A stretch of DNA of 64,000 nt from Tubulanus polymorphus. Its lineage: Eukaryota > Animalia > Nemertea. Every line of letters begins with the position of its first letter. Position 1 is the stretch's first letter. Both the position numbers and the translations under genes were made by a program. Of this stretch, positions 11,189 through 64,000 are shown piece by piece. The stretch lies in contig NC_134025.1 of NCBI RefSeq assembly GCF_964204645.1, forward strand, positions 31,700,788-31,764,787. The letters run 5' to 3'. Below the pieces are notes generated by a model, which was given only the letters and a program-made list of their open reading frames with translations, was not told the origin of the DNA and made no database searches.

Positions 11189-27616
<16,428 letters not shown>

Positions 27617-41026: not shown

Positions 41027-44000
41027 ATGATAAACAAAATGGCGGTGACTGCGATGAGATTGTTATTGTTGGGTTTGTGTGGTATATTAGGTGTTTGGGC
41101 GACTGGTTCACCCGAACCTGTCTCTACCAATGATCTCGATGTTGCGAATGTTGCTAAGTTTGCGCTGAATGAAATTGATCAACGAACGAACTCTAATTAC
41201 CGCTCCAGAGTCAAACAGATTGTGTCAGCTAAACGACAGGTAGGTGACGACAGTCCTTCTTATTACCGAACGAGATGACGGAGATGACGTAGTTTACCGA
41301 GATCAACAGAGATGACATGAAATATAACATATTTATTTATTCCTTCTTATCGATTTTAACACATGAAATCATGTTATATCAGTAATCGCTCCATAATTAG
41401 TTTGAAATGTCTTTTCATGGCTCGGTTGGAGTGCAAACAGAATGTGACCTGCTGCAGACCTAACCCCATACACCAATAAGAGTTCTTATTAAATTTGTAA
41501 ACATAATAATTGTGAGTTGTATTCTGATTTATTTACAGCTGGTGAATGGATTCAATTGGTTTATCACATTCGACAAAGAGAAAACAAATTGTTTGATCAC
41601 TGATGATTTGAAACTCCTCAAGAACTGTATTCCTAATGGACCTGTAAGTGTTTAAACCCCTCACATACACCTCACATACACCTCATATACCCCTCACATA
41701 CCCCTCACATACCCCTCACATACCCCTCACATACACCTCATATACCCCTCACATACCCCTCACATACACCTCACATACACCTCACGTACACATCACATAC
41801 ACCTCACATACACATCACATACACCTCACATACACCCCCACATACCCCTCACATACACCTCACATACCCCTCACGTACCCCTCACATACACCTCACATAC
41901 ACCTCACAGTTTCTGAGTGTCTATATTTCTATATTTACAGGTCGCTCGCTGTGACATTAAAGTCTATTCCACATTTCACAATGAATACACTTTGAATCAG
42001 TATAAATGTAATTCACCCGGTTCGCTGTTAGGTGGCATTACTGAGGAAGATATTGAAGATCCATTGGTTAAGAAAGCTGCGGAGTTTGCTACCGTTCAGG
42101 CGAATAATGCCGTTAATAGTTTATTCTTTCATAAACTAGTAACAGTTAAATCAGTTACAAAACAGGTAACAATTCATTCAAATATGTTTGAATTACTTTC
42201 TATGAATGATGATAGAATTGTATCGTATCGTATCGTATCGTATCGTATTGTATTTTATTGTTTTTCAGGTTGTCGCTGGATTGAAATATAAAATCAAATT
42301 TACAATCGGTGAAACTGAATGTAGGAAAAACAGGAATCAATTGAATCATTGTCCATTGACTAATAATGCTGGGGTAAGAGTTCATGTCACCTCGGGACAG
42401 TTATAATACAGTCATAGCTTTAGATAAAACACCAGTCTTAGTCCATCTAAGTTCTGCAGCCGATCTAACATGTAAAAACTGATCTTAAGATTTAACTGTT
42501 GATAAATATCAATATGAATGTGTATTTGTAGAAAGTTCATGCGATGGATTGCGAAGCAGTTGTTATATTTAAAGCGTGGGAAACTCCTCAATACACAATG
42601 GATAAACCGGTCGAATGTAAAGATGTTGAAGGTGGAATTCAACTTAGAAAGAAGAGAAGTTTAACCGTTAATATGGACCAGGTAATCATTCTAATAATTC
42701 ATAATGTAAATATTCTAATTAATGGAACATCGCGCTAAATATGAATACATGTATTTTAGGAATCGAAAGATGAAATTTCACATAAAATTCTCTTCAAAGA
42801 TTTCAAGGCTCGATATAACAAGGTTTATAAATCTTCTCAAGGTTTGTTTCTAGTTTCAAAAGTTGTTTTTATTTGAGTGATTTTCACTGTTTGATATCGT
42901 GTTTGTGTTTGTATATGAATAGAGGAAGCAGATCGTTACGCCATCTTTAGGAAGAATATGGAAACAGTTCGTGTATTACAGGCTACAGAGAGGGGTTCAG
43001 GCCGATATGGCGCCACTCAATTTGCCGATTTATCAGGTGATTATCATTCACATGATTTCAGTCTCTTATCAGTTTTAAATGTGCCTCAAACTGATAAGAA
43101 TCAAGTGTTTTTTCGAGATAAATCGTTTTAGTACAAATGCACTGATTGTGATTTTAACAGAGGAAGAATTTCGCAAGAATTATTTGAGTCCAGTTTGGAA
43201 GAAAGATGACAGTTTACCCCGAGCTAAAATCCCGAACGCAGCGCCCCCTCCATCATTTGATTGGAGAAAATCTGGTGCGGTAACTGAAGTTAAAAACCAG
43301 GTATGAAAACTAAACAATACAATGTAACAATTTCTCATAGTGTAATAAATGTGTGAATACAATGTAATGATTATATTGTTGAAGGGATCATGTGGATCTT
43401 GTTGGGCGTTTTCTACGACTGGTAATATTGAAGGTCAATGGTTTATCAAAAAGAAACAGTTGGTTTCACTGTCAGAACAAGAGTTAGTCGATTGTGACAA
43501 GGTGGATCAGGGCTGTGGAGGTGGACTTCCATCTAACGCTTATAAAGAGATCATCCGTCTTGGTGAGTGTGGATAGAGTGTCCTGGAGGGTGGATAGAGT
43601 GTCCTTGAGGGTGGATAGAGTGTCCTGGAGTGTGGATAGAGTGTCCTGATGTGGATAGAGTGTCCTGGAGGGTGGATGGATAGAGTGTCCAGAAGGGTGG
43701 ATAGAGTGTCCTGGAGGGTGGATAAAGTGTCCAGGAGGGTGGATAGAATGTCCTGGAGGGTGGATAGAGTATCCTGGAGGGTGGATAGAGTGTCCAGGAG
43801 GATGGATAAAGTGTCCAGAAGGGTGGATGGATAGAGTATCCTGGAGGGTGGATAAAGTGTCCAGAAGGGTGGATAGAGTGTCCAGGAGGATGAATAAAGT
43901 GTCCAGGAGGGTGGATGGATAGAGTGTCCTGGAGGGTGGATGGATAGTGTCCTGAAGTGGATAAAGTGTCCAGGAGGGTGGATAGAGTGTCCTGAAGTGG

Positions 44001-46098: not shown

Positions 46099-49000
46099 AT
46101 GGCGTTGCACGTTCCTCGACCTCCCGGCTTCACTTCTATGCTGAAGGATGGCGCTAAGGTTAGTATTTATTCTTGATCAATCGTGTTTATTTAATAGTTT
46201 AAACTGAGATTGTTCGAATGTGATTTGAGTTGAATTCTGGAAGCTGTAACTGTAAAAACTACTGTCGAAACTAAAACTCTCGTCTCGGAAACATCTAGAA
46301 ACGCTCACTTGCCACAGCTGGCTACTGCTTGACTATGATTAATCCTAATTAGAATGATTTATGGATTCTTATCTAATGGAGGGAGGTCTGCAGTTAGGGA
46401 GTACAGGTCCTACAGCCACTGGATGAGACTGGGTACTCACTCTGAGTCTGAGTGGTCGGTGGGTTTGTTGATTATTTCCATTAATATCTAACTTAATGAA
46501 TTTTGTTGTTTATTTCAGAGTTTTAAAGGTTTGGAAGAAGCCGTTTACAGAAACATTGAAGCTTGTAAAGAACTCGCCAAAACAACACGTTCAGCTTATG
46601 GTCCTAATGGTATGTATCGGATTCAAACCCGGGACCTTCTCTCAACTAAACCTCTTACTATAAACTACTTTTCCCCGTTTTATTTCAGGGCAGAATAAAA
46701 TGGTTATCAATCATTTAGAGAAATTATTCGTTACGAATGACGCTGCAACAATACTACGTGAATTAGAGGTTCGTAGTCATGGTGATGATTATAGGTCGGA
46801 TATATCGGTAATGATATTAATAATGATGAAATGTTACATCGTTAGGTCCAGCATCCCGCTGCTAAGATGATAGTTCTAGCCTCTCAGCAGCAGGAACAGG
46901 AATGCGGAGATGGTACGAACTTTGTTCTGGTATTTGCCGGAGCTCTATTAGAACGAGCTGAAGAATTATTAAGGATGGGTTTATCGGTAACTGAAGTCAT
47001 CGATGGTTACGAAATAGCTTGTAAGAAAGCTCTAGAATTCTTAGCAGGTAAATTCACTAACCTAAAAATACCTTCCTCACTTGCCACAGATTGCCTCTGA
47101 TTATTTCCGACTCCACGTGACCTTCCGACTCCATGTGACCTTCCTACTCCAACCCATGTGATCAGGGGCAGGCGTTGAATCTACAGTCTGTGCGAGATGA
47201 TGAATGTGATTGTTTGTTTTTATAGATTTAGTTGTCGGTAAAGTCGATGATTTGAAGAATAAATCTCTAGTGAAGAAACTGATTAAAACATCAGTGATGA
47301 GCAAACAATACGGGAATGAGGAATTTCTTTCTGATATTCTTGTAGACGCTTGCTGTAAGTAATAAATACTCACTTTATATTGATTCAACTAACATTCGAT
47401 TGATTGATTGATTGATTGATTGATTAATTGATTGTATTTGTTTTTCAGTGTCTGCTTTACCTGAGAAAACAATGTTTAATGTTGACCATATCAGAGTGTC
47501 GAAGATACTGGTAAGTTGATCATCCTAACCTCCTCATTTTCCTCCTCCTCTGCTCTGTTTTCCTCCTCTACCCTACCCTCGTTGTAACTCACACAGTAAC
47601 TGTTGTCTATTGATTGTAGGGTTCTGGAATACACAGTAGTTCTATCATTCATGGTATGGTTTTTAAACGACAAGTTGAAGGAAATGTGAATAAAGCTGAA
47701 CATTGTAAAATAGCTGTGTTTACGTGCCCTGTAGATACCATACAAACTGAAACGAAGGTACGTATGTCATTTCACATACCTCACATACACTACTCTCACA
47801 TACACTTTCAGATGATTGATATTAAATGGTTTATATTTACAGGGAACTGTTCTTATCAAAACAGCTCAAGAATTGATGGATTTCAGCAAAGGAGAAGAGA
47901 ATCTTATGGAAGAGGTAAATAATTACTCAATAGAGGGCAGTACGGTGCTGGTTTATGCGTAGGGGGCAGCACGTGCTATTGATATATTTTATTGTATATA
48001 TTTTCAGCAAATCAAATCAATAGCTGATGCTGGTTGTAAAGTGATAGTATCCGGAGGTAAAGTCGGAGAATTAGCTTTACATTACGCCAATAAATATAAT
48101 CTATTGGTCGTTCGTCTTCTGTCGAAGTTTGATTTACGGAGATTGTGTAAAGCTATTAGCGCTACACCTCTACCTAGACTTGTGAGTAACCCCTACCTCT
48201 AACCTAATCATTAAAATGATTAAACAGCCTCCATCTCTAAACCTACCCACCCTATTATTGTTTTCAGACAGCGCCGACTGCTGAAGAGGCCGGTCATTGC
48301 GATTATGTAGCTATAGAAGAAATAGGTGAAACTCCAGTAATTATATTTAAACAAGAGAAAGAAGAGAGCGCTGTATCTACAATAGTTATACGTGGTTCTA
48401 CTGATAATATCATGGATGATATTGAAAGAGCTGTTGATGATGGGGTCAATACATTTAAAACTATCACTAAGGTTTGTAAAGATATCGGACCCCTCTCGAG
48501 GGCAGTCTGCTGGACATGAGTTACCCGTGACTCCTCGTGGGCAGTCTGCTGGACATGAGTTACCCGTGACTCCTCGTGGGCAGTCTGCTGGACATGAGTT
48601 ACCTGTGACTCCTCGTGGGCAGTCTGCTGGACATGAGTTACCCATGACTCCTGGTGGGCAGTCTGCTGGACATGAGTTACCTGTGACTCCTCGTGGGCAG
48701 TCTGCTGGACATGAGTTACCGGTGACTCCTCGTGGGCAGTCTGCTGGACATGAGTTACCCACGACTGGGCAATCAGTGTGAGTTAATGGTTAACTGTATT
48801 TATATTTGAAAGGATGGCCGATATATTCCCGGTGCTGGAGCGACTGAGATTGAATTAGCTAAACGTATCGCATCATACGGTGAAACCTGCGCAGGTTTAG
48901 AACAATACGCGATACAGAAATTCTCCGAGGCTTTCGAAGAAATTCCTAGAGCTTTAGCTGAAAATGCAGGAGTGAAGGTAGGAACCGCGGGTTAAAGTTA

Positions 49001-49480
49001 AACGCAACCCCCCTTAGGGTCTAGTATAAACCAGGTTGATTTGTATTGTTTCAGAGCAATGAACTCGTTTCTAAGATGTATTCCGCTCATCACGAAGGCA
49101 ACGCAAATATGGGATTCGATATTGAGGTATGAGATACTACTACCGTAAACCTTCTATTGAATAGAGCTGTAAATATTCTAATAATATATATGTATTTGCA
49201 GGCTGAAGGAACTGGATTATTAGACGCGGTCAAATCTGATATCCTAGAATTATACATCACCAAATATTGGGGAATTAAATTTGCATCGGCTGCAGCTAAT
49301 ACAGTACTGAGAGTTGATCAGGTAAAAATAGATACCCTCCCACCACCAACTGAGCACCTTCCCCTGATTTATGATGACATGTTCACCCTCCCCTGGATTG
49401 TTTTTGTATTTTAGATAATCATGGCTAAAGCCGCTGGAGGGCCGAAACCGAAGGAAAACAAGAACTGGGATGATGACTAA
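46099..49480 (+). CDS. CCT8: T-complex protein 1 subunit theta (chaperonin CCT8)
   Basis: MALHVPRPPGFTSMLKDGAK start; GLEEAVYRNIEACKEL, SAYGPNG, FVTNDAATILREL, QEQECGDGTNFV, RGSTDNIMDDIERAVDDGVN, PGAGATEIELA, VLRVDQIIMAKAAGGPKPK end. About 14 exons. Confidence 0.97.
48500..48770. repeat. 39-bp intronic minisatellite, ~7 copies
   Basis: gggcagtctgctggacatgagttacccgtgactcctcgt. Confidence 0.93.
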
Positions 49481-51437: not shown

Positions 51438-54400
51438 TTAGACGTTGCTTGTAGGCAGTGATTGTAATAATTTCAGTACTAAATCCTGAGCACTTGGAGG
51501 ATTCTCCATAAACCAACAAACTCTCATCAAATTCAGCATCTGAAACGAAGAATTACGTGGAAAATAAAGACAATTAATTCATAGAAGAATTAAAACTAGT
51601 GAGAATATAGATGATCAATTCATAGATGAATTAAAGACTTACGTGATAACCGATAATTCCTATTTTACGAGTTTGTTTCATCTCTTCGATCAGACTGAGT
51701 ATTTTATTTATATCACCGCTTAGTAAAGAATCGAACGGAACTTTACTATAAGTGCTGCAGATATATCTACAATAAGCCACGTGATGTCCTGTTATACCGA
51801 TCTGTCTGTGACCCCGGTCTGTTTCACAGTACTGAAATATCGGGGAACTATTCAGTACGAATGAATTGTTAATAGATGGCGTTCTAGTCGATTTACTGAT
51901 AGTTGAAGCCGCTATTATCGACTCCTCATCGTCTGAAGTCCATGACGTCACCGCTTTAGAGTTTACCGATATCGTACTGCTGGGACTGGGGCGCCCCCTA
52001 GTGACCGGACTATTACGCACCTTAGTGACCGGACTGGTACGCCCCCTAGCGCGATTTTCAGTTGTTAATTTAGCTAATAAGACAGCCTGTCTGCCGGCGT
52101 TATCCGGATAAAGTCCAATAGCTTGTAATAAAACATCTTCGTCGCTTTCGTTAACAGGTGTCGCCTGTTGTCTCAATCTGTTCACTTTACCTTGTCTAAT
52201 AGGTGTCGCTATACGTACTGAACTAGTACCAGACCTGGCAGCAGCAGCTGTAGCAGCTGTAGCTGCTCGAGCAGGTGTATTAGATGTAACAGGACTGGTA
52301 TTTTCACTAGAGTCATTAACACACCCGCTATCCTCACTGAAATAAGCTGTATCTGACTGCAGTATTTCATCCTCTAATCGATACTGGGTCGTGTCTGGTA
52401 TATCACAGATATTAGCTGTAGTCGTTACAAGATGTTTCCTGCTGGTCACCTCAGCACCTGCAGTAGCTGCACCTGACTCATTCTCCTCAGCTGCAGCTGC
52501 TAACTCTCTCTCAGTCTCCTCGCAGATGCTACTTTCCTGTGAGTTCGTTCTACCGTTTTCTGTTGTTACAGATTTTTTATTACGTGAAGTTTCTCTTCGT
52601 AAATCAGTGGAGGCCGCGAATCTCGACAGAGATGAATCCATCGAATGATTCCCAGGACTATTCCTCAAATGTTTCGGATCCATCGTTAAATTCTGACAAC
52701 TTTGCGATAACGGTTTTGATTTGTTCGGATACGTGCTTCTGATTGGATTAGAGCGCGCTACGTTGGCTCTGATTGGTCGAACACGGTTGTTATTACCCAT
52801 GATTCTATCTCTCAAACTCTTCTGCTGATTCTGATACCTGTCGCGCATATTTTTAGTAAACGCCGAGTTTTTCTGTTTTTGTATAGATTTGTGTTCCTCA
52901 GCTGCCAGCTGCACCTGTAGCTGCTGCTGCTGCTGCTGTTCCTTACTCTGCCAGGCGTTTTTAACTATTGTCTCATTGTCTGTTATTTCTAACTCTTCTG
53001 ATAAATCCCACATACTCGCTGTCGCACCACCACCAGCGCCACCTTTACGAACTCGCTGTCTATGCGCCACACTAGTTGTACTAGGAGACGTTTGTTTTGG
53101 GGTTGAGCCAGGCTTGCTGGGGGTTGAGCTAGGCTTGCTGGGGGTTGAGCCAGGCTTGCTGGGGGTTGAGCTAGGCTTACTGGGGGTTGAGCTAGGTTGT
53201 CTAGGGGTTGAGCTAGGTTGTCTAGGGGTTGAGCTAGGTTGTCTAGGAGTAGAACCAGGCTGTCTATGGGTAGAACCAGGCTGTCTATGGTTAGGCTGTC
53301 TGGGGGTTGAGACAAGCTGTCCAGGGTTAAGGATCATGAGTTGGCCGGGTCTTGGCGTCCCGAGATGCCCAGGGTTGGTTGTAGGCTGTGTGTTCTCTAA
53401 TTTCATTCCAATCATCTCTTGTTCAATCAACTTGTCATCATCATCGATGCTGTTTATTCGCTGTTGAACTTTATTCTCCTCGTCAGCCTCCTCTAATATC
53501 GATTGTATGATCGCCTCTGATTCCGCGTCTATAACAGTACTGTGTACATCCAGTCTACTGACAGCACCGGTTCGGTTAATCTCTGCTGTACTGGGCCGGG
53601 AGCGGTCCACGGGCCCGGGGCCATTCACTGCTGTACTGGGCTGGGAGCGGTCCACGGGCCCGGGGCGATTCACTGCTGTACTGGGCCGGGAGCGGTCCAC
53701 GGGCCCGGGGCGATTCACTGCTAATTCTAACGGCTCACTCCTCGGACTCAGGTTTAATTTCTCACTGAAATCAACAGTTTGTCGTTTTGAAGCCGCTTTT
53801 ACTTCGTGTACGTTACTGGGTAGAGTTGGTACCAGATCGGGCTGCTGCCGTTTGGGTTTACTAACTGTAGGTAGCTGCTGCTGCTGCTGCTGCTGGTGCT
53901 GGTGCTGGTGCTGCTGGTGCTGCTGGTGCTGCTGCTGTTGAGTTGTTCTAACACGTTGTTCTGTACTATATCCTGAATCGAGTCGTCTGATCGGTTTGTT
54001 GTTACTGCTGTTATAATGATGTCCTGCACCACTCGATGACTCGCTCCCGTATGATCGCACTGTATTACTGGAACTAACGCTATCGTGACGCGGTTTCAGA
54101 ATTTTAATTTTCGGCGCATTCGATGACGTCACGACCTCGTGACTAGTTTTCTGTTGTTTATTCGACGACGGTTTGCGAGGAAGTTCAAGGTCAGATGAGT
54201 AATTATGATGCGAAATCGAGGCTTGTATGGGTTTACATTTTAAACGTCCTCTATTTTCCTCCTCAGCAGCACGTTTTGCCTCGTCATCGATTTGTGCTAC
54301 TTCTAAATCGGCTAATATATCCTCATCAGTTTCATCCTCAGTTTCCTCGCTCGCTGCTGCTGGTAAAGGATGTAAAACTAAAACTCTCGAGTCCTGCGCT

Positions 54401-57400
54401 GAATTAATTATATCGATTCTTCTCGGCGAATTCGAATTCTGAATCAACGGTTTTGATTGGATAACTTTTATACCAGTCGCTTTCTGATTGGCTCCGGAGT
54501 TAAAACTCAGCATCTGATTGGCTGCGGCGTTGTAACCCGGCTTCTGATTGGCTGTGACGTTGTAATTCGGATTCTGACTGGCCGAAGCGACGAAACTCTG
54601 CTTCTGATTGGTTAAACTATCAGTATCGCTGTGAGTTAAGGTACTTACAATGGATAACTGTTCGGGTGGAGGTCCTTCAACTGATAACTCACTTACCGCG
54701 CTTGCGCAGTTACCACGTGTTAAACCGTAACGATAATAAAACAGACACATGATCATTTCTAATAGAACTAATCCGTACGATCTGAGCTCGCCGATAAATA
54801 ACTCAATACTGAATTCATCACAGTTCGAGGAATCGTTTATAACCTGAGAATCTTCAAAATCCGCTAAAACAGCTTTCAATAACATATTCTGTAAAAACAA
54901 GAAATAAAATAAAACTGAATATCGTGAACATTTAGAGTTCTGAATTTCTGCATGTTGAACTAAGGAACTGTGTGGAACTGAGGAACTGTGGAATTGTGGA
55001 ACTAACATGTGGAACTGAGGAACTGTGGAACTGTAGAACTAACGTGTGGAACTGAGGAACTGTGGAACTGTAGAACTAACGTGTGGAACTGAGGAACTGT
55101 GGAACTGTAGAACTAACGTGTGGAACTGAGGAACTGTGGAACTGTAGAACTAACGTGTGGAACTGAGGAACTGTGGAACTGTAGAACTAACGTGTGGAAC
55201 TGAGGAACTGTGGAACTGTAGAACTAAGGGGCTAGTTGCATTTTCATTTAGACACCGTTAATCGAAATTGAAACATCAAGTAATGCTCAACGTCTGGAAG
55301 GGAGAAGGTTCCAGGGCTGGTTGCATAGTCATGGCTTAGACTTAAACCTAGTCTAAGGCCAACTTAGTTCTATAGCCAATCGTACAACTTAAGATTTTAG
55401 ACCACTTTTGGACTTAAGTCATGACTGTGCAACTGGCCCCTGGACTGTGGAACAGAATTTACACTAGAATAGCTTCCAATCATCCCTAGTTCTACAGCTG
55501 TAAGTTTCATTATCAATGAAGTGAAACAATATCAACAAACCTCAGTTGATCCAATAAGATAAATGTTTTTGCTCGAAATTCGACCGTGTACGAGATTTAA
55601 TGATCTTAAATGACCGATTCCTTTAGCTACATCAACGGCTAACATGTGTAAACATCCTTCCGTTAGTAGTTTTGGGGGATGTTGAAGCAATTTACGTAAA
55701 CTTCCGTGATCTAAAAACGCTCTACAAATCACCCTGAAATATAAAACACAGTAGTCTTATAGATCACTGAATAGTCAACAGACAAAGAGCTGGTCCGACA
55801 ACATGAGAGAGAGTGGTCCGGCCGTGGTCCGGCCGCAGACACTACGGGATGCCCTGCTGCCCAAACAACCGCGTCAGGATCGACGATTAGATTAAATAAA
55901 TTAAATTAACACAAAAATATATGATTCTGACCCTAATTTACCCTTCAGCAAACTTCCACACCCGAATGTGCACAAGAGTTAGACGAAATACCAGAATTCA
56001 TAGTGGTTGAATGAGGGATGTTTATTTCAACACGCTATATACGCGCTCAGATTTCAGGTCCAACTAAAACTGACCCCTAAAATCAATGTTGCCTAAAAAC
56101 GCATATCACGAGGTTTACAAGGATACTAGAATCTCTGCTGCTGGAATCAGTCAATGATTGTCGTTTATTTCAGGGAATTTGAAAATGGAAGCGCAATTAA
56201 TTGCGCTTCAATTAAACTTGTTTATGTTCAAATTTCATAGAAATGACCTCTTAAAACACATTGTGCCTGAACCACACCTGGCAAGGTGCCCGAGAATGAG
56301 TGAGTCACTACACCTGACTGGTCACCACACACCCACTAACCCTAAACCTAACTTAAAACATACTTCTTTGGCAATGTTTTTATGTAATTGTTCGTCAGAT
56401 GATTTCTATTTCTATGTATGAATAAAGATACGACCTTTATATAAATCGTTTCTGTTCTAATTGTTCTTACAAAATATGCAAATTGTCCAAATTCAATCTA
56501 ATTTCCTGGCAAATTAATTGAAGTGATACAAAAACCCCTTGTTTGGGGTATTGTAAAGTGAATATAGGGGTCGCTACGCATGACTGGTTATCACATAACA
56601 ATGGTCAACACACTGACAAATCAAAATGGGTTGACCACCAGAACTCTATGGTCTAGTGGTAGACACTCTGGTTTGGCAGGTGAGAGACCCGAGTTCGAGT
56701 CTCAGCCCAGCTAGGGTTAGGGTTACGGAGGATGGAACTAGGGTTAGGGTTACGGGTCACCTAGGGTTTGGCTAGACGTGTTTTCATCATTTTTTACGCT
56801 ATGATTTCCCCTTTAAAAAAAATTTTTACAAATATGTATATTTTGAAATAGAGAAAGGTTTCTAACGCTTTAGGATGAGATAGGAAAAGGCTCCAATTAT
56901 GAGAGAATTAGGTTTTTGTGTGGCAGAATTTGTCCAAATTCATGGCTAAAAGCTTGTTTATTTTATTAAACTGTAAATTGTTTGGGTTATTCAGGAATTT
57001 TAAAAGGTTTTCCTATCGAGTTGGCTGTTTGTTAAACTTATATATATTTGACTTTGATATGAACTAATTACACAACAACATTTACACACTGGACAGAACT
57101 GTACTACATGACTGTATAAACATGTCAGGTACTCGCAGGTACCCGAGACAGCACCAGGCACCCACAGGTACCAGAGACTGCACCAGGCACCCACAGGTAC
57201 CCGAGACTGTTCCAGGTACTCGCAGGTACCCAAGACGGCACCAGGTATCCACAGGTACCAGAGACTGTGCCAGGTATCCACAGGTACCCGAGGCTGTGCC
57301 AGGTACTCGCAGGTACCCGAGAATTCTCTAACCTACCTTGATTTACGATTAATTCCTATTTGTGATTGTGATATGATTCCTGTGTAGTATCGATTCTGAT

Positions 57401-58665
57401 TTGATGACCAGTAATATTTCACGATATTCTCATGCGGGGTTTTAGTAATTAAAGCCGCTGCTTGAACTTCATTTTGCCATCGATCTTTCATATTTACAGG
57501 AAACACTTTCATTACACCACTCACTACTACACCGTCTATCGGCCATTTCACTTGCATTAATAAAATATCCGTCTACAAATTCAGAAAAAAAGAAGGGAAA
57601 TGATTGTGAAATATCGAATTGAAGAATAAGAAAATAATAATAAAGAAATATCGAAATTAATTTATTATTGATATTTCAGAGAATTGAACTTACTTTAATT
57701 TGATTCGGCATCACTTTTATATCCTGAATTTCTAGCGGTACAATTGAGACATCTTTATAAATAATATCAGCAGTTTTACTGCGAGAAGAGTTTAATCCTA
57801 GTTTACCGCGATCGCGAAGATAACTGATTAACGGAACTAAAGTATGGATTAACATACATATACCCGATATATACCCGACCGGCCATTTCATCTTATCCTT
57901 ATCAGTGGTCGATCCGTTGAAAAATGCTGACGTCACAAAACACAATATAACGAAGTAAGAAACGACATCGATCAATAACCAGATGATCAACCTCTTTAAA
58001 GAGATCCAGTGATCATAGAATGTCGTTTCCGGATCAGTATCCAGTCTCAGGTTAAATTTAGGATAGGATTTCGCTAGAATATAAATACATAGCGCTACAG
58101 TACTGGTTATACCTAACCATAGAATAAACAGTTGAAAGAATGAGTATCCCCAGTCGTTCTCTCCGGGTATCCGTAACGGGATACACGAGTATCTGTAAGG
58201 TAGTCCAGTATCGAACATGTCTGTAGCTGCCATGGGTAAAAATGAGATAATTGCGGTAACGGTCCATTCTACTAAAACTATTGTCGTAAAAATACAAACG
58301 CAGAATCCACCTCTAGCCAGTTTACCCAGTTGCCATAGCAACATGGTAACTACGGTAGTGACGTGCATGAATATTGTTGTAGTGAACATGAATAATAATA
58401 TGAATCCAGCTCCGCGACACGACGACGAGGTGGAGGAGGAGGAATTATCAGATATATCATCAGCAGATATCACAACTATCAATAATCCGATACTAAATCC
58501 GATAGATCCGATATCCTGTAGAATATAACTCATCTTTATAACGATTAAAACATCTTTATGTTCCCGAATCGATCTCCATATCATCAATATCAGGTTAGCA
58601 ACGATCGCTATAGCAACTAGAATAGATAGAATGTATCCAGCAGCTTGTTCACCGGGTTCGAACAT
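51438..58665 (-). CDS. 7TM (LGR-like class A) receptor fused to a split pseudokinase domain with a ~1000-aa low-complexity insert (~1580 aa, 5 coding exons)
   Basis: Phase-consistent GT-AG exons 58665-57694, 57572-57337, 55733-55541, 54888-51643, 51539-51438. Seven hydrophobic segments, then kinase motifs VMKVF, NE, HENIVKY, GSL, VAKGIGHL, VHGRISSKNI, LADFE, ELRSYGLVLLEM, and after the insert KVPF...KILSLI and LMRVCW...PSAQDL. Confidence 0.8.
54964..55227. repeat. ~37-bp intronic minisatellite
   Basis: gtgtggaactgaggaactgtggaactgtagaactaac units. Confidence 0.92.
55315..55440. mobile_element. MITE family A, copy 2
   Basis: Homologous to 5214-5352; TIRs GGTTGCATAGTCATG ... CATGACTGTGCAAC. 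Confidence 0.75.
56643..56775 (+). mobile_element. Degenerate tRNA-derived (SINE-like) sequence with a TAGGGT-repeat tail
   Basis: A-box TGGTCTAGTGG, B-box GAGTTCGAGTC, imperfect cloverleaf, then TAGGGTTAGGGTTAC twice. Confidence 0.5.
57125..57322. repeat. ~30-bp degenerate minisatellite
   Basis: caggtactcgcaggtacccgagac / caggcacccacaggtacc units. Confidence 0.85.
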
Positions 58666-60928
58666 CGTACACCCCTCTACACGACCACTCTTAGTTACAT
58701 ATCTACAAATACAACGACGATACTCTTAGCGAGCAATTCGATCTGATTGGTTGAATAGTTACCTCTTAATGAGATTTATGAATAGTGAGTTGATTAAAGT
58801 GTAATAAAATTAGAATTAAATTGATTGTTTGGGGGGGGGGGTAGTCCGGGGGTAGTCCGGGGGATTAACTTTAATCGCTACTACAAGTTTAATCATGCAG
58901 GAACCGTAGTCAATTTATACACAAAATTAACTTCCGGTTATAGAAAATTGTCAAATGGAATGAAATTCATTTTGAACAATGAATTCATAGAAGCTTCAGT
59001 TATAAACTAAACTTTAAATCAAACTATAAACTTAACTTAAATTATAAACTAAACTTAAATTATAAACTTAACTTAAACTTAACTAAACTTCAACTCAACT
59101 AAACTAAGCTCAACTAAACTCAATAAACAAAGCCTGCGCATGATTTAAAAGGATTTTTGCATCAAATATAAATAGTTAAATTCAGCTGATTTATTGTTGT
59201 TAAACTTGTTGTTTATTCACTTGCCGATTTGAAATTCATTATAGATTATATTTGATGTAATTGCGAGGCAGACGTGGAACTATAATCACAAACTGTGGAA
59301 CCGTATCAAACACTTATAACTCACGACTGTGAAAGTGTCTTTGAAGATGAAATGAAATTTACCTTTTTAATTAAGAATAAAATTCGGCGCAGTAGTTATT
59401 GACGGACGGGATGAGTCTCGCGTACTGCGGCTCTCACTGTGAGTGTAATTAACCCGACAGTATAATATCTATGTGTACACACAGTTTAACCTAAGTTGTA
59501 TGTACTTTACCTGTGTATAAGACATTAGTTCTATTACTTTCACGCTCCATATAACTTATATACTAATAAATACCCGTGATTTTAAACAATTAGAAATAAT
59601 CCCTTAAAATATTCCAAGAATATTCATTTACCGAGGTATTCTAACGTCGATCAACAATTTACATTACTCCAAGGTTATGCGGAACATAGTCATTGTTCTA
59701 ACCGTTAGTACTCTGGTAACACGGAACCATCCGTTCATATTCAATCTGAGATTTTTCTATCAGATTTGTTTTGTTTACTTTTGTAAATCAAGATCTTAAA
59801 ACAGATTTAATAATCCCGGCCTACTCTGGATCCGACCTCACGGAGATGTCCCGCTGCTAGGGTACCTGGTTTCTAACACCCCGATCGCGGAGCAGTCCTA
59901 ACTCTTACCAGGGTTCGGGTTCACGCCCCCTCAGAATATAACTGGGTCTACTCAGTGATTTCCGTATCTGGATTCGAACCTGGTACGCCCTTGTTCATCC
60001 TCAATTCAACATCCGGCGTTGACCATGAATTTATTATCGGGTTCGAACCTGGGACTCCCGTTCCATTATCTCTTCAAATTTGTCACTAGCGTCAGTCAAA
60101 CAACCGGGTTCGAACCAGGGACCTACATTTCTAATCGATGGTACATGTTATACTTCATTTCCGATAGATGGCGCTTGTGAAATAAAGTGCAGCACTAATC
60201 TTGGATATAGTAGATTCAAGAAATTTGATAGTTCGACGAAATTCCAATAGATGGCGAACACGTAGGAAATTAACGAGTCGAATAAAAAATAGAACAATAA
60301 AACATTGGTTTTTATTGTGGTATTATTAGACTCAGGGATTGTTTCATCGTACAGATCAATCTCCATCCATCCTCGTAAAGGTCTCGGTGTGCTTGTATTG
60401 GGATTTCTACTCTTTCTTATACATATGTCTCCCTCTAGTGGTGAGTCCCAGCCCTACAACTTGTGTCCCTCTCTTTTTACTGGTGCCCAGACAATCCGCT
60501 TCAGAGTCTTAAACCCAAACATTAAAACAAAACATAAAACAAAGAATTAAATCACGCAGTTTTTTATTGAAAAATAATTCTATAAGATAAATATTATTTC
60601 ACTGTACAAACAATGTTTAACACTGAACATGATGGACTGTGGGGTTGTTACCGTGTGGAACGACGGCTAGGTACTAGGGTCTGATCTATATCCCCGGGCC
60701 TCCCTCTCCCTTCCCTCCCTCTCCCTTCCCTCACTCTCCCTTCCCCTGCCCTCCGGCCTCAGTTCCTTCCCCTGCCCTCCGGCCTCACTTCCTTCCCCTG
60801 CCCTCCGGCCTCACTCCCTTCCCCATTACCTTGTGAACTTAATTACTGATGAAATGTATTTACAACACAATCACAGAATAACAGCACCAAATACAGACAG
60901 TAGAGACCCCTAGTGAGCAGTATCTACA

Positions 60929-63393
60929 CTATATATCCTTTACATTATCTAACGAACCAATAGATGGCGTTAGTAGTGTTTGTTTATATTGATTCAATGC
61001 TTCTTGGTCTGCCGGGCATTCGAAATGAACACAATGGAAAACCTGTAATTTAAAACACAACAATCAATTCAGTTATATACACAGACACAGATAAACAATA
61101 GCTCGTTAGTTAATTACCTCGTTAGCAGTATTGTGCGTTCCAATTAATTTTACAAATGCCACGGGCCGTTTCGGAAACGTTAGGATTTCCCAAGATCTGA
61201 AAAGTTTAATAAACAAATAAATTGATATCAGTTTTCATCGGCTCTCTCCCATAAACACCCAGTGTCCCTCCCTCTAGTCTGGCCCCGCCCCCCCCCCCTG
61301 GCCCCCTGGCCCCCACCTCTCTCTCCTGTAAGGCTTACCTACAGTTTTCACGTTTAGCTACTGTTTCCCAGTTTTGTTGATTCACTGAAACTTCTATATT
61401 GTAACTATACCTTCGGTCATCGCAGTCCCATAGCAACAATCTGTTACAACAATATAATACACATAGCAACAATGGATGACAGCAGTCGCTATAGAAACGG
61501 AATAACGTCGTACAAACCTCATAGAATCTAACATGTACGGCTGAGCTAACTGTATAATAATACATCCACTACCTAACTGATGACATGTATATCCACTATC
61601 CCAGTCATAGTTCTTAGTATGACCATTAATGAGAGCATTACGACATCTACTGACACCTTCTAATACACACGCACTGCAGTCTAATGTAGCTACATTCTTA
61701 CTGGGTACTAAAACATATAAACACACTGATAATACACGTCATATACCGGTCTCTTAGAATAGAGTTTAACAGTTGGATGATACAGTAGACTCTGTTTGTA
61801 GAACCATGTTTTAACTTACCGATAATTCCATTGTCTAAAACAAATGTTGAATAAGTGAAATAACATTCAAATGCGATCGCGTGGAAAACTCTGTTGACAG
61901 TGTTGTGAGTCCCGACAATACGAAAATACCTACAAATATATAAAACAATAACTGAGCCCTGGCGAGTGAGTAAAACTGAGCCCCTGGGGCCGGTTCCATA
62001 GTCGAGATTTAAGTCCAAAAGTCACAAATCTTAAGACTGGTCTTAAGCTGTTAGATTAGCTATAGAACTAAGAGAGCCTTAGACTGGTCTTAAGTCTAAG
62101 CCATGACTATGGAATTTGCCCCTGGTGAGTGAGTAAAAACTAAGCCCTGGGAAGTGATTAAGCCATCTTTATTTTGTAAGTCCCAAGTTGTATTTCTAAT
62201 TCAATTTACTAAGCATAATTCATTATCATATTGATCACCACAAATATAATGAGGAGTTCTAGCTGTATTTATACTTACTTTGCGACGTGAATGAGTAGAA
62301 CTGAGCCCTGGCGAGTGAGTTATACTTACTTTGCGACGTGAGTGAGTAGAACTGAGCCCTGGCGAGTGAGTTATACTTACTTTGCGACGCGAATGAGTAG
62401 AACTGAGCCCTGGCGAGTGAGTTATACTTACTTTGCGACGCGAGTGAGTAGAACTGAGCCCTGGCGAGTGAGTTATACTTACTTTGCGACGCGAGTGAGT
62501 AGAACTGAGCCCTGGCGAGTGAGTTATACTTACTTTGCGACGCGAGTGAGTAGAACTGAGCCCTGGCGAGTGAGTTATACTTACTTTGCGACGCGAGTGA
62601 GTAGAACTGAGCCCTGGCGAGTGAGTTATACTTACTTTGCGACGCGAATGAGTAGAACTGAGCCCTGGCGAGTGAGTTATACTTACTTTGCGACGCGAGT
62701 GAGTAGAACTGAGCCCTGGCGAGTGAGTTATACTTACTTTGCGACGCGAGTGAGTAGAACTGAGCCCTGGCGAGTGAGTTATACTTACTTTGCGACGCGA
62801 ATGAGTAGAACTGAGCCCTGGCGAATGAGTTATACTTACTTTGCAACGCGAGTGAGTAGAACTGAGCCCTGGCGAGTGAGTTATACTTATTTTGCGACGC
62901 GAGTGAGTAGAACTGAGCCCTGGCGAGTGAGTTATACTTACTTTGCGACGCGAGTTGGAAAGTGTAATTTTTGCCAGGATCGACAGAAATATTTGGAATG
63001 ATCGACGATGCAAACCCAGTCTTTATTATCCATAGAACATTCAATATAATACGAGTAAGATCTGTAAAATATAAAACGCGTTCATCTAATTATTTCCTTT
63101 CAAATGAGTTAAATTCCCGGATCCAGTTGCACCGGGTGTAGGTTAACACTCAATGAGACTACTCACTGACCTCTGATCTCTATCCCACAATAACAATCTG
63201 ATAGTGTTTATAATATGTGGCTCCTTTAACTGAACGACTATTCCAGGATTAGCGCAAGATTCATCGATTAAATGTCGACTAAATCCCCGATCTAAATCAT
63301 ACGTCGTAACATCCTCGTCTAACAATGCAGATTTAATCTCACCGTGGATGACTTCAGCTCCGTGACGACTTGTGGCGACATTCTCATCACTTA
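60929..63393 (-). CDS. BTBD9: BTB/POZ domain-containing protein 9 (3' part, 7 exons; 5' end beyond window)
   Basis: Exons 63393-63171, 63061-62942, 61929-61820, 61707-61518, 61440-61339, 61196-61118, 61042-60929. Two discoidin-like repeats with ENVAT, IRLLLWDRD.RSYSYYIE, IVGTHNTVNRVFH, EGVSRCRNAL, YDWDSGYTCHQLGSG, IGTHNTANEVFHCVHFECP. Confidence 0.93.
61987..62120. mobile_element. MITE family A, copy 3 (inverted), CTG target duplication
   Basis: CTG-GGGCCGGTTCCATAG...CTATGGAATTTGCCC-CTG interrupts an actgagccctggcgagtgagt repeat unit. Confidence 0.8.
62268..62955. repeat. 51-bp minisatellite duplicating a BTBD9 exon end and splice donor, ~13 units
   Basis: Minus-strand unit CTCGCGTCGCAAA|GTAAGTATAACTCACTCGCCAGGGCTCAGTTCTACTCA. 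Confidence 0.95.
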
Positions 63394-63557
63394 CTGTAAA
63401 TACAACAATAAACATCTCACTGATCCTCTTAAACCTCCCTCATCCCCTCCCCTTCCCCTTCATCCCCTCCCCCTCCCCTTCATCCCCTCCCCCTCCCCTT
63501 TATCCCCTCCCCCTCTTCATCCCCTCCCCTCCCCTTCAGCTCCTCCTCCTCTCGTGT

Positions 63558-64000
63558 CTCGATTCTCCCTGGAACCCCTGTATCTCCAGATTCTCCCTGG
63601 AACCCCTGTATCTCCAGATTCTCCCTGGAACCCCTGTATCTCCAGATTCTCCCTGGAACCCCTGAATCTCCAGATTCTCCCTGGAACCCCTGTATCTCCA
63701 AATTCTCCCCGGAACCCCTGTATCTCCAGATTCTCCCTGGAACCCCTGTATCTCCAGATTCTCCCTGGAACCCCTGTATCTCCAGATTCTCCCTGGAACC
63801 CCTGAATCTCCAGATTCTCCCTGGAACCCCTGTATCTCCAGATTCTCCCCGGAGCCCCTATATCTCCAGATTCTCCCCGGAACCCCTGTATCTCCAGATT
63901 CTCCCTGAAACCCCTGTATCTCCAGATTCTCCCTGGAACCCCTGTATCTCCAGATTCTCCCTGGAACCCCTGTATCTCCAGATTCTCCCTGGAACCCCTG
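63558..64000. repeat. ~29-bp intronic minisatellite running off the window end
   Basis: gattctccctggaacccctgtatctcca units. Confidence 0.93.

Follow-up and report, generated by a model that had tools for sequence, protein, structure and literature searches.

A 64,000-nucleotide (nt) stretch of the genome of the nemertean Tubulanus polymorphus (contig NC_134025.1, positions 31,700,788 to 31,764,787; hereafter the window) carries a minus-strand gene of five exons, which together encode a 1582-amino-acid (aa) protein without an internal stop. The protein joins a seven-transmembrane (7TM) bundle of the LGR type, devoid of an ectodomain, to a tyrosine kinase-like (TKL) pseudokinase in one polypeptide. 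Sequence comparison identifies it as a member of a real, conserved and unannotated family. The LGR-derived bundle, fused to a kinase that has no catalytic Asp, likely works as a G-protein-independent scaffold receptor.

All four introns have GT..AG borders, with phases 0/2/0/0. The junctions were checked with a hidden Markov model (HMM) made from 34 relatives, the window protein being left out. This model aligns aa 7-517 as a single domain that spans the first three junctions (245 bits), and a second HMM, made from the last 95 residues of the relatives, aligns aa 1495-1580 over the fourth junction (53.7 bits). A 13.9-kb metagenome contig (L001) bears exons 2-5 of a relative, exon 1 not being on that contig, with the same intron phases as the window gene; exons 3 and 5 are equally long in both genes (193 and 102 nt, respectively) and exon 2 measures 242 nt versus 236 nt in the window. 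The original prediction, which had proposed that five exons splice in phase into a protein of about 1580 aa, is borne out by these alignments. Beyond the gene itself, no synteny was found between the window and L001 or two further contigs (L002 and L003).

Contigs of the runs X1-X3 pass through the introns without splice joints and hence behave as DNA. Among the 40 of 76 differences from the window that are listed, seven of the eight coding substitutions are synonymous. The two coding indels in the list each have a length divisible by three. The long exon 4 is thus under constraint at the protein level. Run X4 is not considered a match to this genome, because nothing aligned on the receptor gene and only pieces about 80% alike were found at the adjoining chaperonin exons. 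Intron 3 harbours a very high-copy short element (window 55314-55445; summed depth of about 73,000 versus about 35 around it in run X1, with many loose ends), which is probably a miniature inverted-repeat transposable element or a short interspersed nuclear element.

A phmmer search with exon 1 against 1.84 billion representatives retrieved 34 relatives with 21-33% sequence identity, the exception being one short repetitive match at 47%. Four of them are proteins of 1559-1831 aa with an N-terminal 7TM region, three of which also have a Pfam kinase match: CAH1791883 of Owenia fusiformis, XP_069118501 of Argopecten, KAK0058480 of Biomphalaria and one Logan protein make up this full-length set. 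A profile search yielded 38 proteins, and the 29 that carry species names all derive from molluscs (bivalves, gastropods and Octopus). The database labels of the relatives are "uncharacterized", "hypothetical" or automatic kinase names, with no family name among them. Fused gene models occur in 28 mollusc species and in Owenia. In addition, Logan contigs of 5.3-6.8 kb carry unbroken open reading frames (ORFs) of 1393-1900 aa, one cluster of which comprises 489 member sequences. Since the genomic gene has introns while these ORFs are unbroken, the contigs, whose library types are not shown, would correspond to spliced mRNAs that carry the 7TM and kinase parts together in the relatives.

Gene models and unbroken ORFs of the relatives, both read at the sequence level, confirm the five-exon fusion of the 7TM and kinase parts. 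It is exceedingly improbable that the 7TM region and the kinase are encoded by separate genes, and the fusion a mere splicing guess, even if 30 of the 34 phmmer matches are 7TM-only pieces and the splice junctions were deduced from genomic DNA and relatives. Many of these 7TM-only pieces end their alignment at the position of the exon-1 donor in the window, as a single-exon read-through would, and such a two-gene arrangement is at odds with the fused models of 28 mollusc species and Owenia as well as with uninterrupted ORFs of 1393-1900 aa on Logan contigs of 5-7 kb.

A tree of the 7TM region was calculated from 43 rows, after five short or repetitive matches of the 34 had been left out and 13 relatives from the profile search added. 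The 17 mollusc-type rows form a clade (starred in the tree) that follows the classes, which is the pattern of a retained ortholog, and an N-terminally incomplete Sinanodonta row is placed separately from it on a long branch. Outside the mollusc clade, the window protein groups with two unnamed proteins (97/98), a position that suggests a lophotrochozoan source other than a mollusc. Word-indexed searches, an insensitive method, gave no match with exon 1 and only the Owenia protein itself with a diverse alignment, and a metagenome scan with one protein query (P0001) found no match. Two candidates from a viral scan (L004 and L005) were rejected as spurious.

Taken by itself, exon 1 has no match in Pfam, and a single-sequence search of the PDB with it found nothing. 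A profile consisting of the window exon and 29 phmmer relatives (30 rows) retrieves a C. elegans LGR first (E 4e-11), together with LHCGR, RXFP1, TSHR and FSHR and afterwards NPY1R and LGR4; the top ten PDB matches all belong to the LGR/LHCGR/RXFP1/TSHR/FSHR group, with E-values from 4e-11 to 3e-5. With the 30-row alignment, AlphaFold2 predicts seven long helices for exon 1, at a predicted local distance difference test score (pLDDT) of 85.6 and a predicted template modelling score of 0.84, while the pLDDT is 49.1 without an alignment; the expected 7TM topology is thereby recovered. The best structural match in VIA-align is the LGR structure 8w1z (Z 23.4, root-mean-square deviation 2.7, 248 aligned residues), with a spider rhodopsin tied within 1 Z. 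Foldseek returns only G-protein-coupled receptors (GPCRs), mostly of class A, among its top 50 matches, and an ESM Atlas search yields generic 7TM clusters only. The cysteine pair that links transmembrane helix (TM) 3 and the second extracellular loop (ECL2) is kept in 28 and 30 of the 30 exon-1 rows, respectively, in line with a class A, rhodopsin-type fold, and the seven helices, this extracellular pair and a C-x-P-L-R pattern in ECL2 are retained family-wide.

The landmarks by which the bundle had been likened to LGRs hold in part. The Asn in TM1, C-x-x-x-G-F in TM3, L-P in TM4 and C-x-P in ECL2 are kept, but the Asp in TM2 and the Trp in TM4 need slight correction: D51 is located three residues ahead of the LGR D2.50 column in the HMMER alignment, a column in which the window protein has Ser and 19 of 30 rows have Tyr, and at the TM4 position Trp is present in only four of 30 rows. 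The Asp in TM6 that is typical of LGRs is retained in the window protein (D233) and found in six of the 30 rows. Only 14-47 residues precede the column of the TM1 Asn in 28 exon-1 rows, and 21-68 residues in 30 full-length rows, which agrees with the proposed LGR-type bundle with almost no N-terminal ectodomain. The three minus-strand frames of 58601-64000 contain no leucine-rich repeat (LRR) or LDLa pattern that would indicate an LRR ectodomain with its hinge; an upstream ectodomain exon was rejected, as that DNA carries another gene and no LRR pattern. In LGRs, ligand specificity resides in the LRR ectodomain, as stated in the part of PMC4079206 considered here. Because of its short N-terminus without this ectodomain, the bundle falls outside the LGR family proper, although its sequence marks it as LGR-derived.

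The loss of the DRY and NPxxY motifs had been noted for the window protein, and it extends to the whole family: [DE]R[YWF] and [ND]PxxY are found in none of the 30 exon-1 rows and in none of the 34 full-length rows, and R3.50 is substituted in all 30 rows (Leu in 21, Met in 3). These substitutions, together with the mostly Tyr-occupied D2.50 column and a kinase that begins close after TM7, make it unlikely that the 7TM bundle has retained a non-canonical and, for want of an ectodomain, possibly constitutive coupling to G proteins, with the pseudokinase and tail regulating only trafficking or desensitisation. Such coupling would be compatible with the clean class A fold, with D233 and the Asp of six rows in TM6, and with the desensitisation role that is proposed for oomycete GPCR-TKLs in the available passages of PMC5784254.

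It also appears rather improbable that the bundle is no sensor at all but anchors the protein in the membrane or forms heterodimers with intact LGRs, the protein then acting as a constitutive adaptor or a decoy. The ectodomain that confers ligand specificity on LGRs, according to the same part of PMC4079206, is absent here, and the 7TM region diverges rapidly (21-33% identity among the phmmer matches), both of which would suit such a role. However, conservation of seven helices, the Cys pair and C-x-P-L-R in ECL2 is more than an anchor requires.

Exons 2-4 encode a TKL-like pseudokinase, as judged from its sequence. Exon 3 matches the Pfam family PK_Tyr_Ser-Thr (PF07714) with an E-value of 6.6e-8, better than the curated cut-off. 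The kinase starts about 30 residues past TM7, and its motifs lie at aa 344 (VMK), 371 (HENIV), 452 (HGR) and 477 (DFE). The best solved matches of the family kinase profile are LIMK1/2, MLKL and LRRK2, accompanied by ULK2, PLK4 and MAP4K1; all of these matches are weak, the best having an E-value of 5e-8 over about 50 positions. Among 60 of the 74 rows of this profile search no tyrosine kinase (TK) occurs, and the strong similarity to TKs that characterises GPCR-TKs is therefore not seen. The β3 Lys, the αC Glu and the Asp of the DF motif are conserved, whereas a GxGxxG loop ahead of β3 is found in none of the 31 rows in which β3 could be located, and an H-x-D catalytic loop and an APE motif are each found in none of 35 rows. 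DFE is present in 30 of 35 rows, the others having DFD (one), DFL (one) or no located motif (three). A kinase-like sequence without the catalytic motifs is thus observed throughout the family, and the TK/TKL-like pseudokinase described from the window alone, where it shows VMK, αC Glu, HENIV, HGR and DFE but no Gly-rich loop, holds up as a feature of the family.

An ATP-sensing switch role has been proposed for some pseudokinases. There is, however, little likelihood that the kinase domain of this family has weak residual activity or serves as such a switch, since the catalytic Asp and APE are absent from all 35 rows and GxGxxG from all 31 located rows, and the catalytic-loop Asn, which the window protein retains, is missing in the mollusc members. 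The conserved β3 Lys, αC Glu and DF Asp speak for this possibility, as do the window protein's Asn and the nearest solved relatives by profile, LIMK, LRRK2 and the pseudokinase MLKL among them. In the Owenia protein, about 27 residues of αD-αE that occur in the window protein and in the remaining displayed rows are missing at about aa 405-410, probably owing to a gene-model error.

Conservation of the kinase ends past an αF-like motif at aa 501 and resumes in a C-terminal block. In BLASTP comparisons with 34 relatives, the intervening insert of about 950 residues matches none of them, while the N-terminal kinase part and the block (last 90 residues) each match all 34; the insert is 721-1334 aa long across the rows measured. 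The stop after αF and the C-terminal block are family features that supplement the original prediction. When aligned by hhalign with nine prokaryotic and viral kinases, the block falls on the last kinase helices with a score of 20.4, the highest value among 40 column shuffles being 17.8. Its addition lengthens the alignment of the N-terminal part from 168 to 221 columns. The N-terminal part plus the block scores 142.2, compared with 135.7 for the natural continuation and 140.9 for the best shuffle. With modest support, the conserved block probably supplies the last helices of a kinase that would be split by the insert. The inserts of molluscs hold short conserved islands, e.g., SLTSGELTSLSSQA, RYREL...GVPLRVS and VDAEL.IDR, which the window protein does not match and which are possible binding motifs.

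Two linear motifs recur in the tail. Of the 35 proteins, 34 terminate in a class I PDZ-binding motif of the form [ST]-x-[VIL]. DSGxx[ST] is present in the tail of 33 of 35 family proteins, and in a shuffle test 29 of the 31 measurable inserts contain it, versus 2.65 expected. It occurs in three lineages (the window, Owenia and the molluscs) whose inserts cannot be aligned. DSGXXS is given as the β-TrCP degron consensus in the part of PMC13097077 considered.

In a G-protein-independent scaffold receptor of this kind, the ectodomain and the G-protein switches would have been traded for the attached pseudokinase scaffold. A ligand would bind to the TM bundle and the extracellular loops, a region in which the cysteines that link TM3 and ECL2 are retained. 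The C-terminal block would fold back and complete the C-lobe of the kinase, while 700-1300 disordered residues loop out. The dead kinase would sit under the bundle and change its shape or its partner binding when the 7TM part switches state or pairs with another receptor. Localisation would depend on the PDZ-type end, and turnover by SCF-β-TrCP could be triggered once the DSG motif is phosphorylated. More tentatively, and with rather less than even likelihood, the family could represent an undescribed conserved bilaterian receptor class that has dropped G-protein coupling and completes a split kinase across a disordered loop of about 1000 residues, with folding, PDZ docking and degron phosphorylation combined into an output switch.

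Several observations weigh against this mechanism. Other GPCR classes couple to G proteins without DRY or NPxxY, and so coupling is compatible with their absence. The receptor function put forward here is a prediction from sequence and modelled structure, and the junctions of the window gene are deduced from genomic DNA and relatives. Taken alone, the C-terminal block has an hhalign probability of only 5%, and it found no kinase in the PDB or Pfam. Per-sequence HMM scoring puts it at the expected place in only two of 22 reference kinases, many of which are distant, and shuffles reach up to four. In the window protein, in Owenia and in the molluscs, the DSG motifs sit in unalignable sequence, each being expected by chance in 3-15% of cases upon shuffling, and the relatedness of the family members makes the motif counts non-independent and inflated.

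PTK7, ROR and RYK are receptor pseudokinases with a dead intracellular kinase domain. A dead kinase likewise serves as an intracellular receptor module in the kinase-homology domain of receptor guanylyl cyclases, as described in the consulted part of PMC4883820. These receptors are the closest functional model, but they are single-pass proteins with ectodomains, whereas the window protein has seven helices and neither an ectodomain nor a cyclase domain. The receptors for glycoprotein hormones and relaxin and other LGRs (LHCGR, TSHR, FSHR, RXFP1, 8w1z and GRL101) resemble the family in 7TM profile and structure, including the TM1 Asn, C-x-x-x-G-F of TM3, L-P of TM4 and C-x-P of ECL2. They differ in having an LRR ectodomain, a hinge, ERW/DRY and NPxxY, all absent here, and lack the cytoplasmic tail of about 1250 aa with its pseudokinase.

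Fusions of a GPCR and a kinase had been listed in the original prediction as described mainly from oomycetes and amoebozoans. This is correct for the GPCR-TKL "bigrams", which the available passages of PMC5784254 report from oomycetes and amoebozoans only, with GPCR-bigrams rare or nonexistent in metazoans, but it is incomplete, as GPCR-TKs of choanoflagellates and sponges have been published (PMC12716839, in the passages considered). Like the window protein, the bigrams of PMC5784254 combine an N-terminal 7TM region with a C-terminal TKL-type kinase, and an ESM Atlas feature search with residues 1-520 of a relative ranks an oomycete kinase cluster first (0.91; the architecture of the cluster is not shown). 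As far as the bigrams are described there, the present family is distinguished by its animal LGR-type 7TM bundle, a kinase without the catalytic Asp and an apparent split of 700-1300 aa, and the window protein ends in a PDZ-type motif rather than the DEP domain of the bigrams. The GPCR-TKL/K proteins of acanthoecid choanoflagellates and the GPCR-TKs of choanoflagellates and sponges also unite a 7TM region and an intracellular kinase in one chain; the consulted passages of PMC12716839 state that such fusions arose repeatedly, that none is functionally characterised, that GPCR-TKs occur in no metazoan lineage other than sponges, and that their kinases strongly match curated TKs. The present family is bilaterian, LGR-derived and apparently catalytically dead, a distinction drawn from the published descriptions, again in the part considered.

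The sponge GPCR-TKs published in those passages of PMC12716839 precede the window gene as animal GPCR-kinase fusions. For bilaterians, however, the family contradicts the view, expressed in the surveyed parts of PMC5784254 and PMC12716839, that animals other than sponges lack 7TM-kinase fusions entirely or almost entirely. A full-text literature search, with most subscription papers and supplements outside its scope, found no description of a bilaterian 7TM-pseudokinase family. A term search of the accessible text of the oyster kinome paper (PMC4883820), the supplements of which may label the oyster gene otherwise, returned nothing for GPCR, 7TM or pseudokinase, and kinase-bearing LGRs are not mentioned in the part of PMC11863921 considered. 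The family was probably overlooked because its 7TM region is not detected by Pfam 7tm_1 and its kinase match is partial. It is present in workable animals (Aplysia, Biomphalaria, oysters, Octopus and Owenia). With this family, one could directly test whether the signal of a class A bundle can pass through a pseudokinase covalently joined to it and, provided that the split is real, how the kinase fold tolerates a kilo-residue insertion.

Table 1. Exons and sequence features of the receptor-pseudokinase gene, in window coordinates.
Feature	Position	Strand	Description
Exon 1, aa 1-324	57694..58665	(-)	972 nt; begins with the start Met and encodes seven TM helices with a class A fold of LGR type; lacks an ectodomain
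Exon 1, 3' end	near 57694	(-)	already encodes the beginning of the kinase N-lobe
Exon 2, aa 325-403	57337..57572	(-)	236 nt; pseudokinase N-lobe with β3 Lys (VMK, aa 344-346) and αC Glu; no Gly-rich loop
Exon 3, aa 403-467	55541..55733	(-)	193 nt; hinge, αD-E, catalytic loop HGR without catalytic Asp
Exon 4, aa 468-1549	51643..54888	(-)	3246 nt; DFE (aa 477), αF-like ELRSYG (aa 501)
Exon 4, remainder	51643..54888	(-)	low-complexity, non-conserved insert of ~950 aa, then first part of the C-terminal block (from about aa 1495)
DSGYST, aa 771-776	53962..53979	(-)	β-TrCP-degron-type motif in the insert; DSGxx[ST] match
Exon 5, aa 1550-1582 and stop	51438..51539	(-)	102 nt; CW-containing helices, probably kinase αH-αI; class I PDZ-type end -TSNV

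Directly upstream of the receptor gene, at about 61000-64000 on the minus strand, lies a multi-exon gene, presumably BTBD9, that contains two GTHNT...EC repeats and weakly matches an F5/8-type Pfam family; its last recognisable exon is located about 2.3 kb before the receptor ATG. On the other side, plus-strand exons of a TCP-1/cpn60 chaperonin (PF00118; about 46500-49400), which we take to be CCT8, are convergent with the receptor gene. The plus strand further contains a two-exon C2H2 zinc-finger gene at 24143-27616, presumed to be KLF-like by its motifs, and at 41917-42291 an exon that looks cystatin-like by eye and has no Pfam match at E 0.01. A long tandem array with a 45-bp period occupies 21054-23985; it is open in several frames and is one of many minisatellites in the window.

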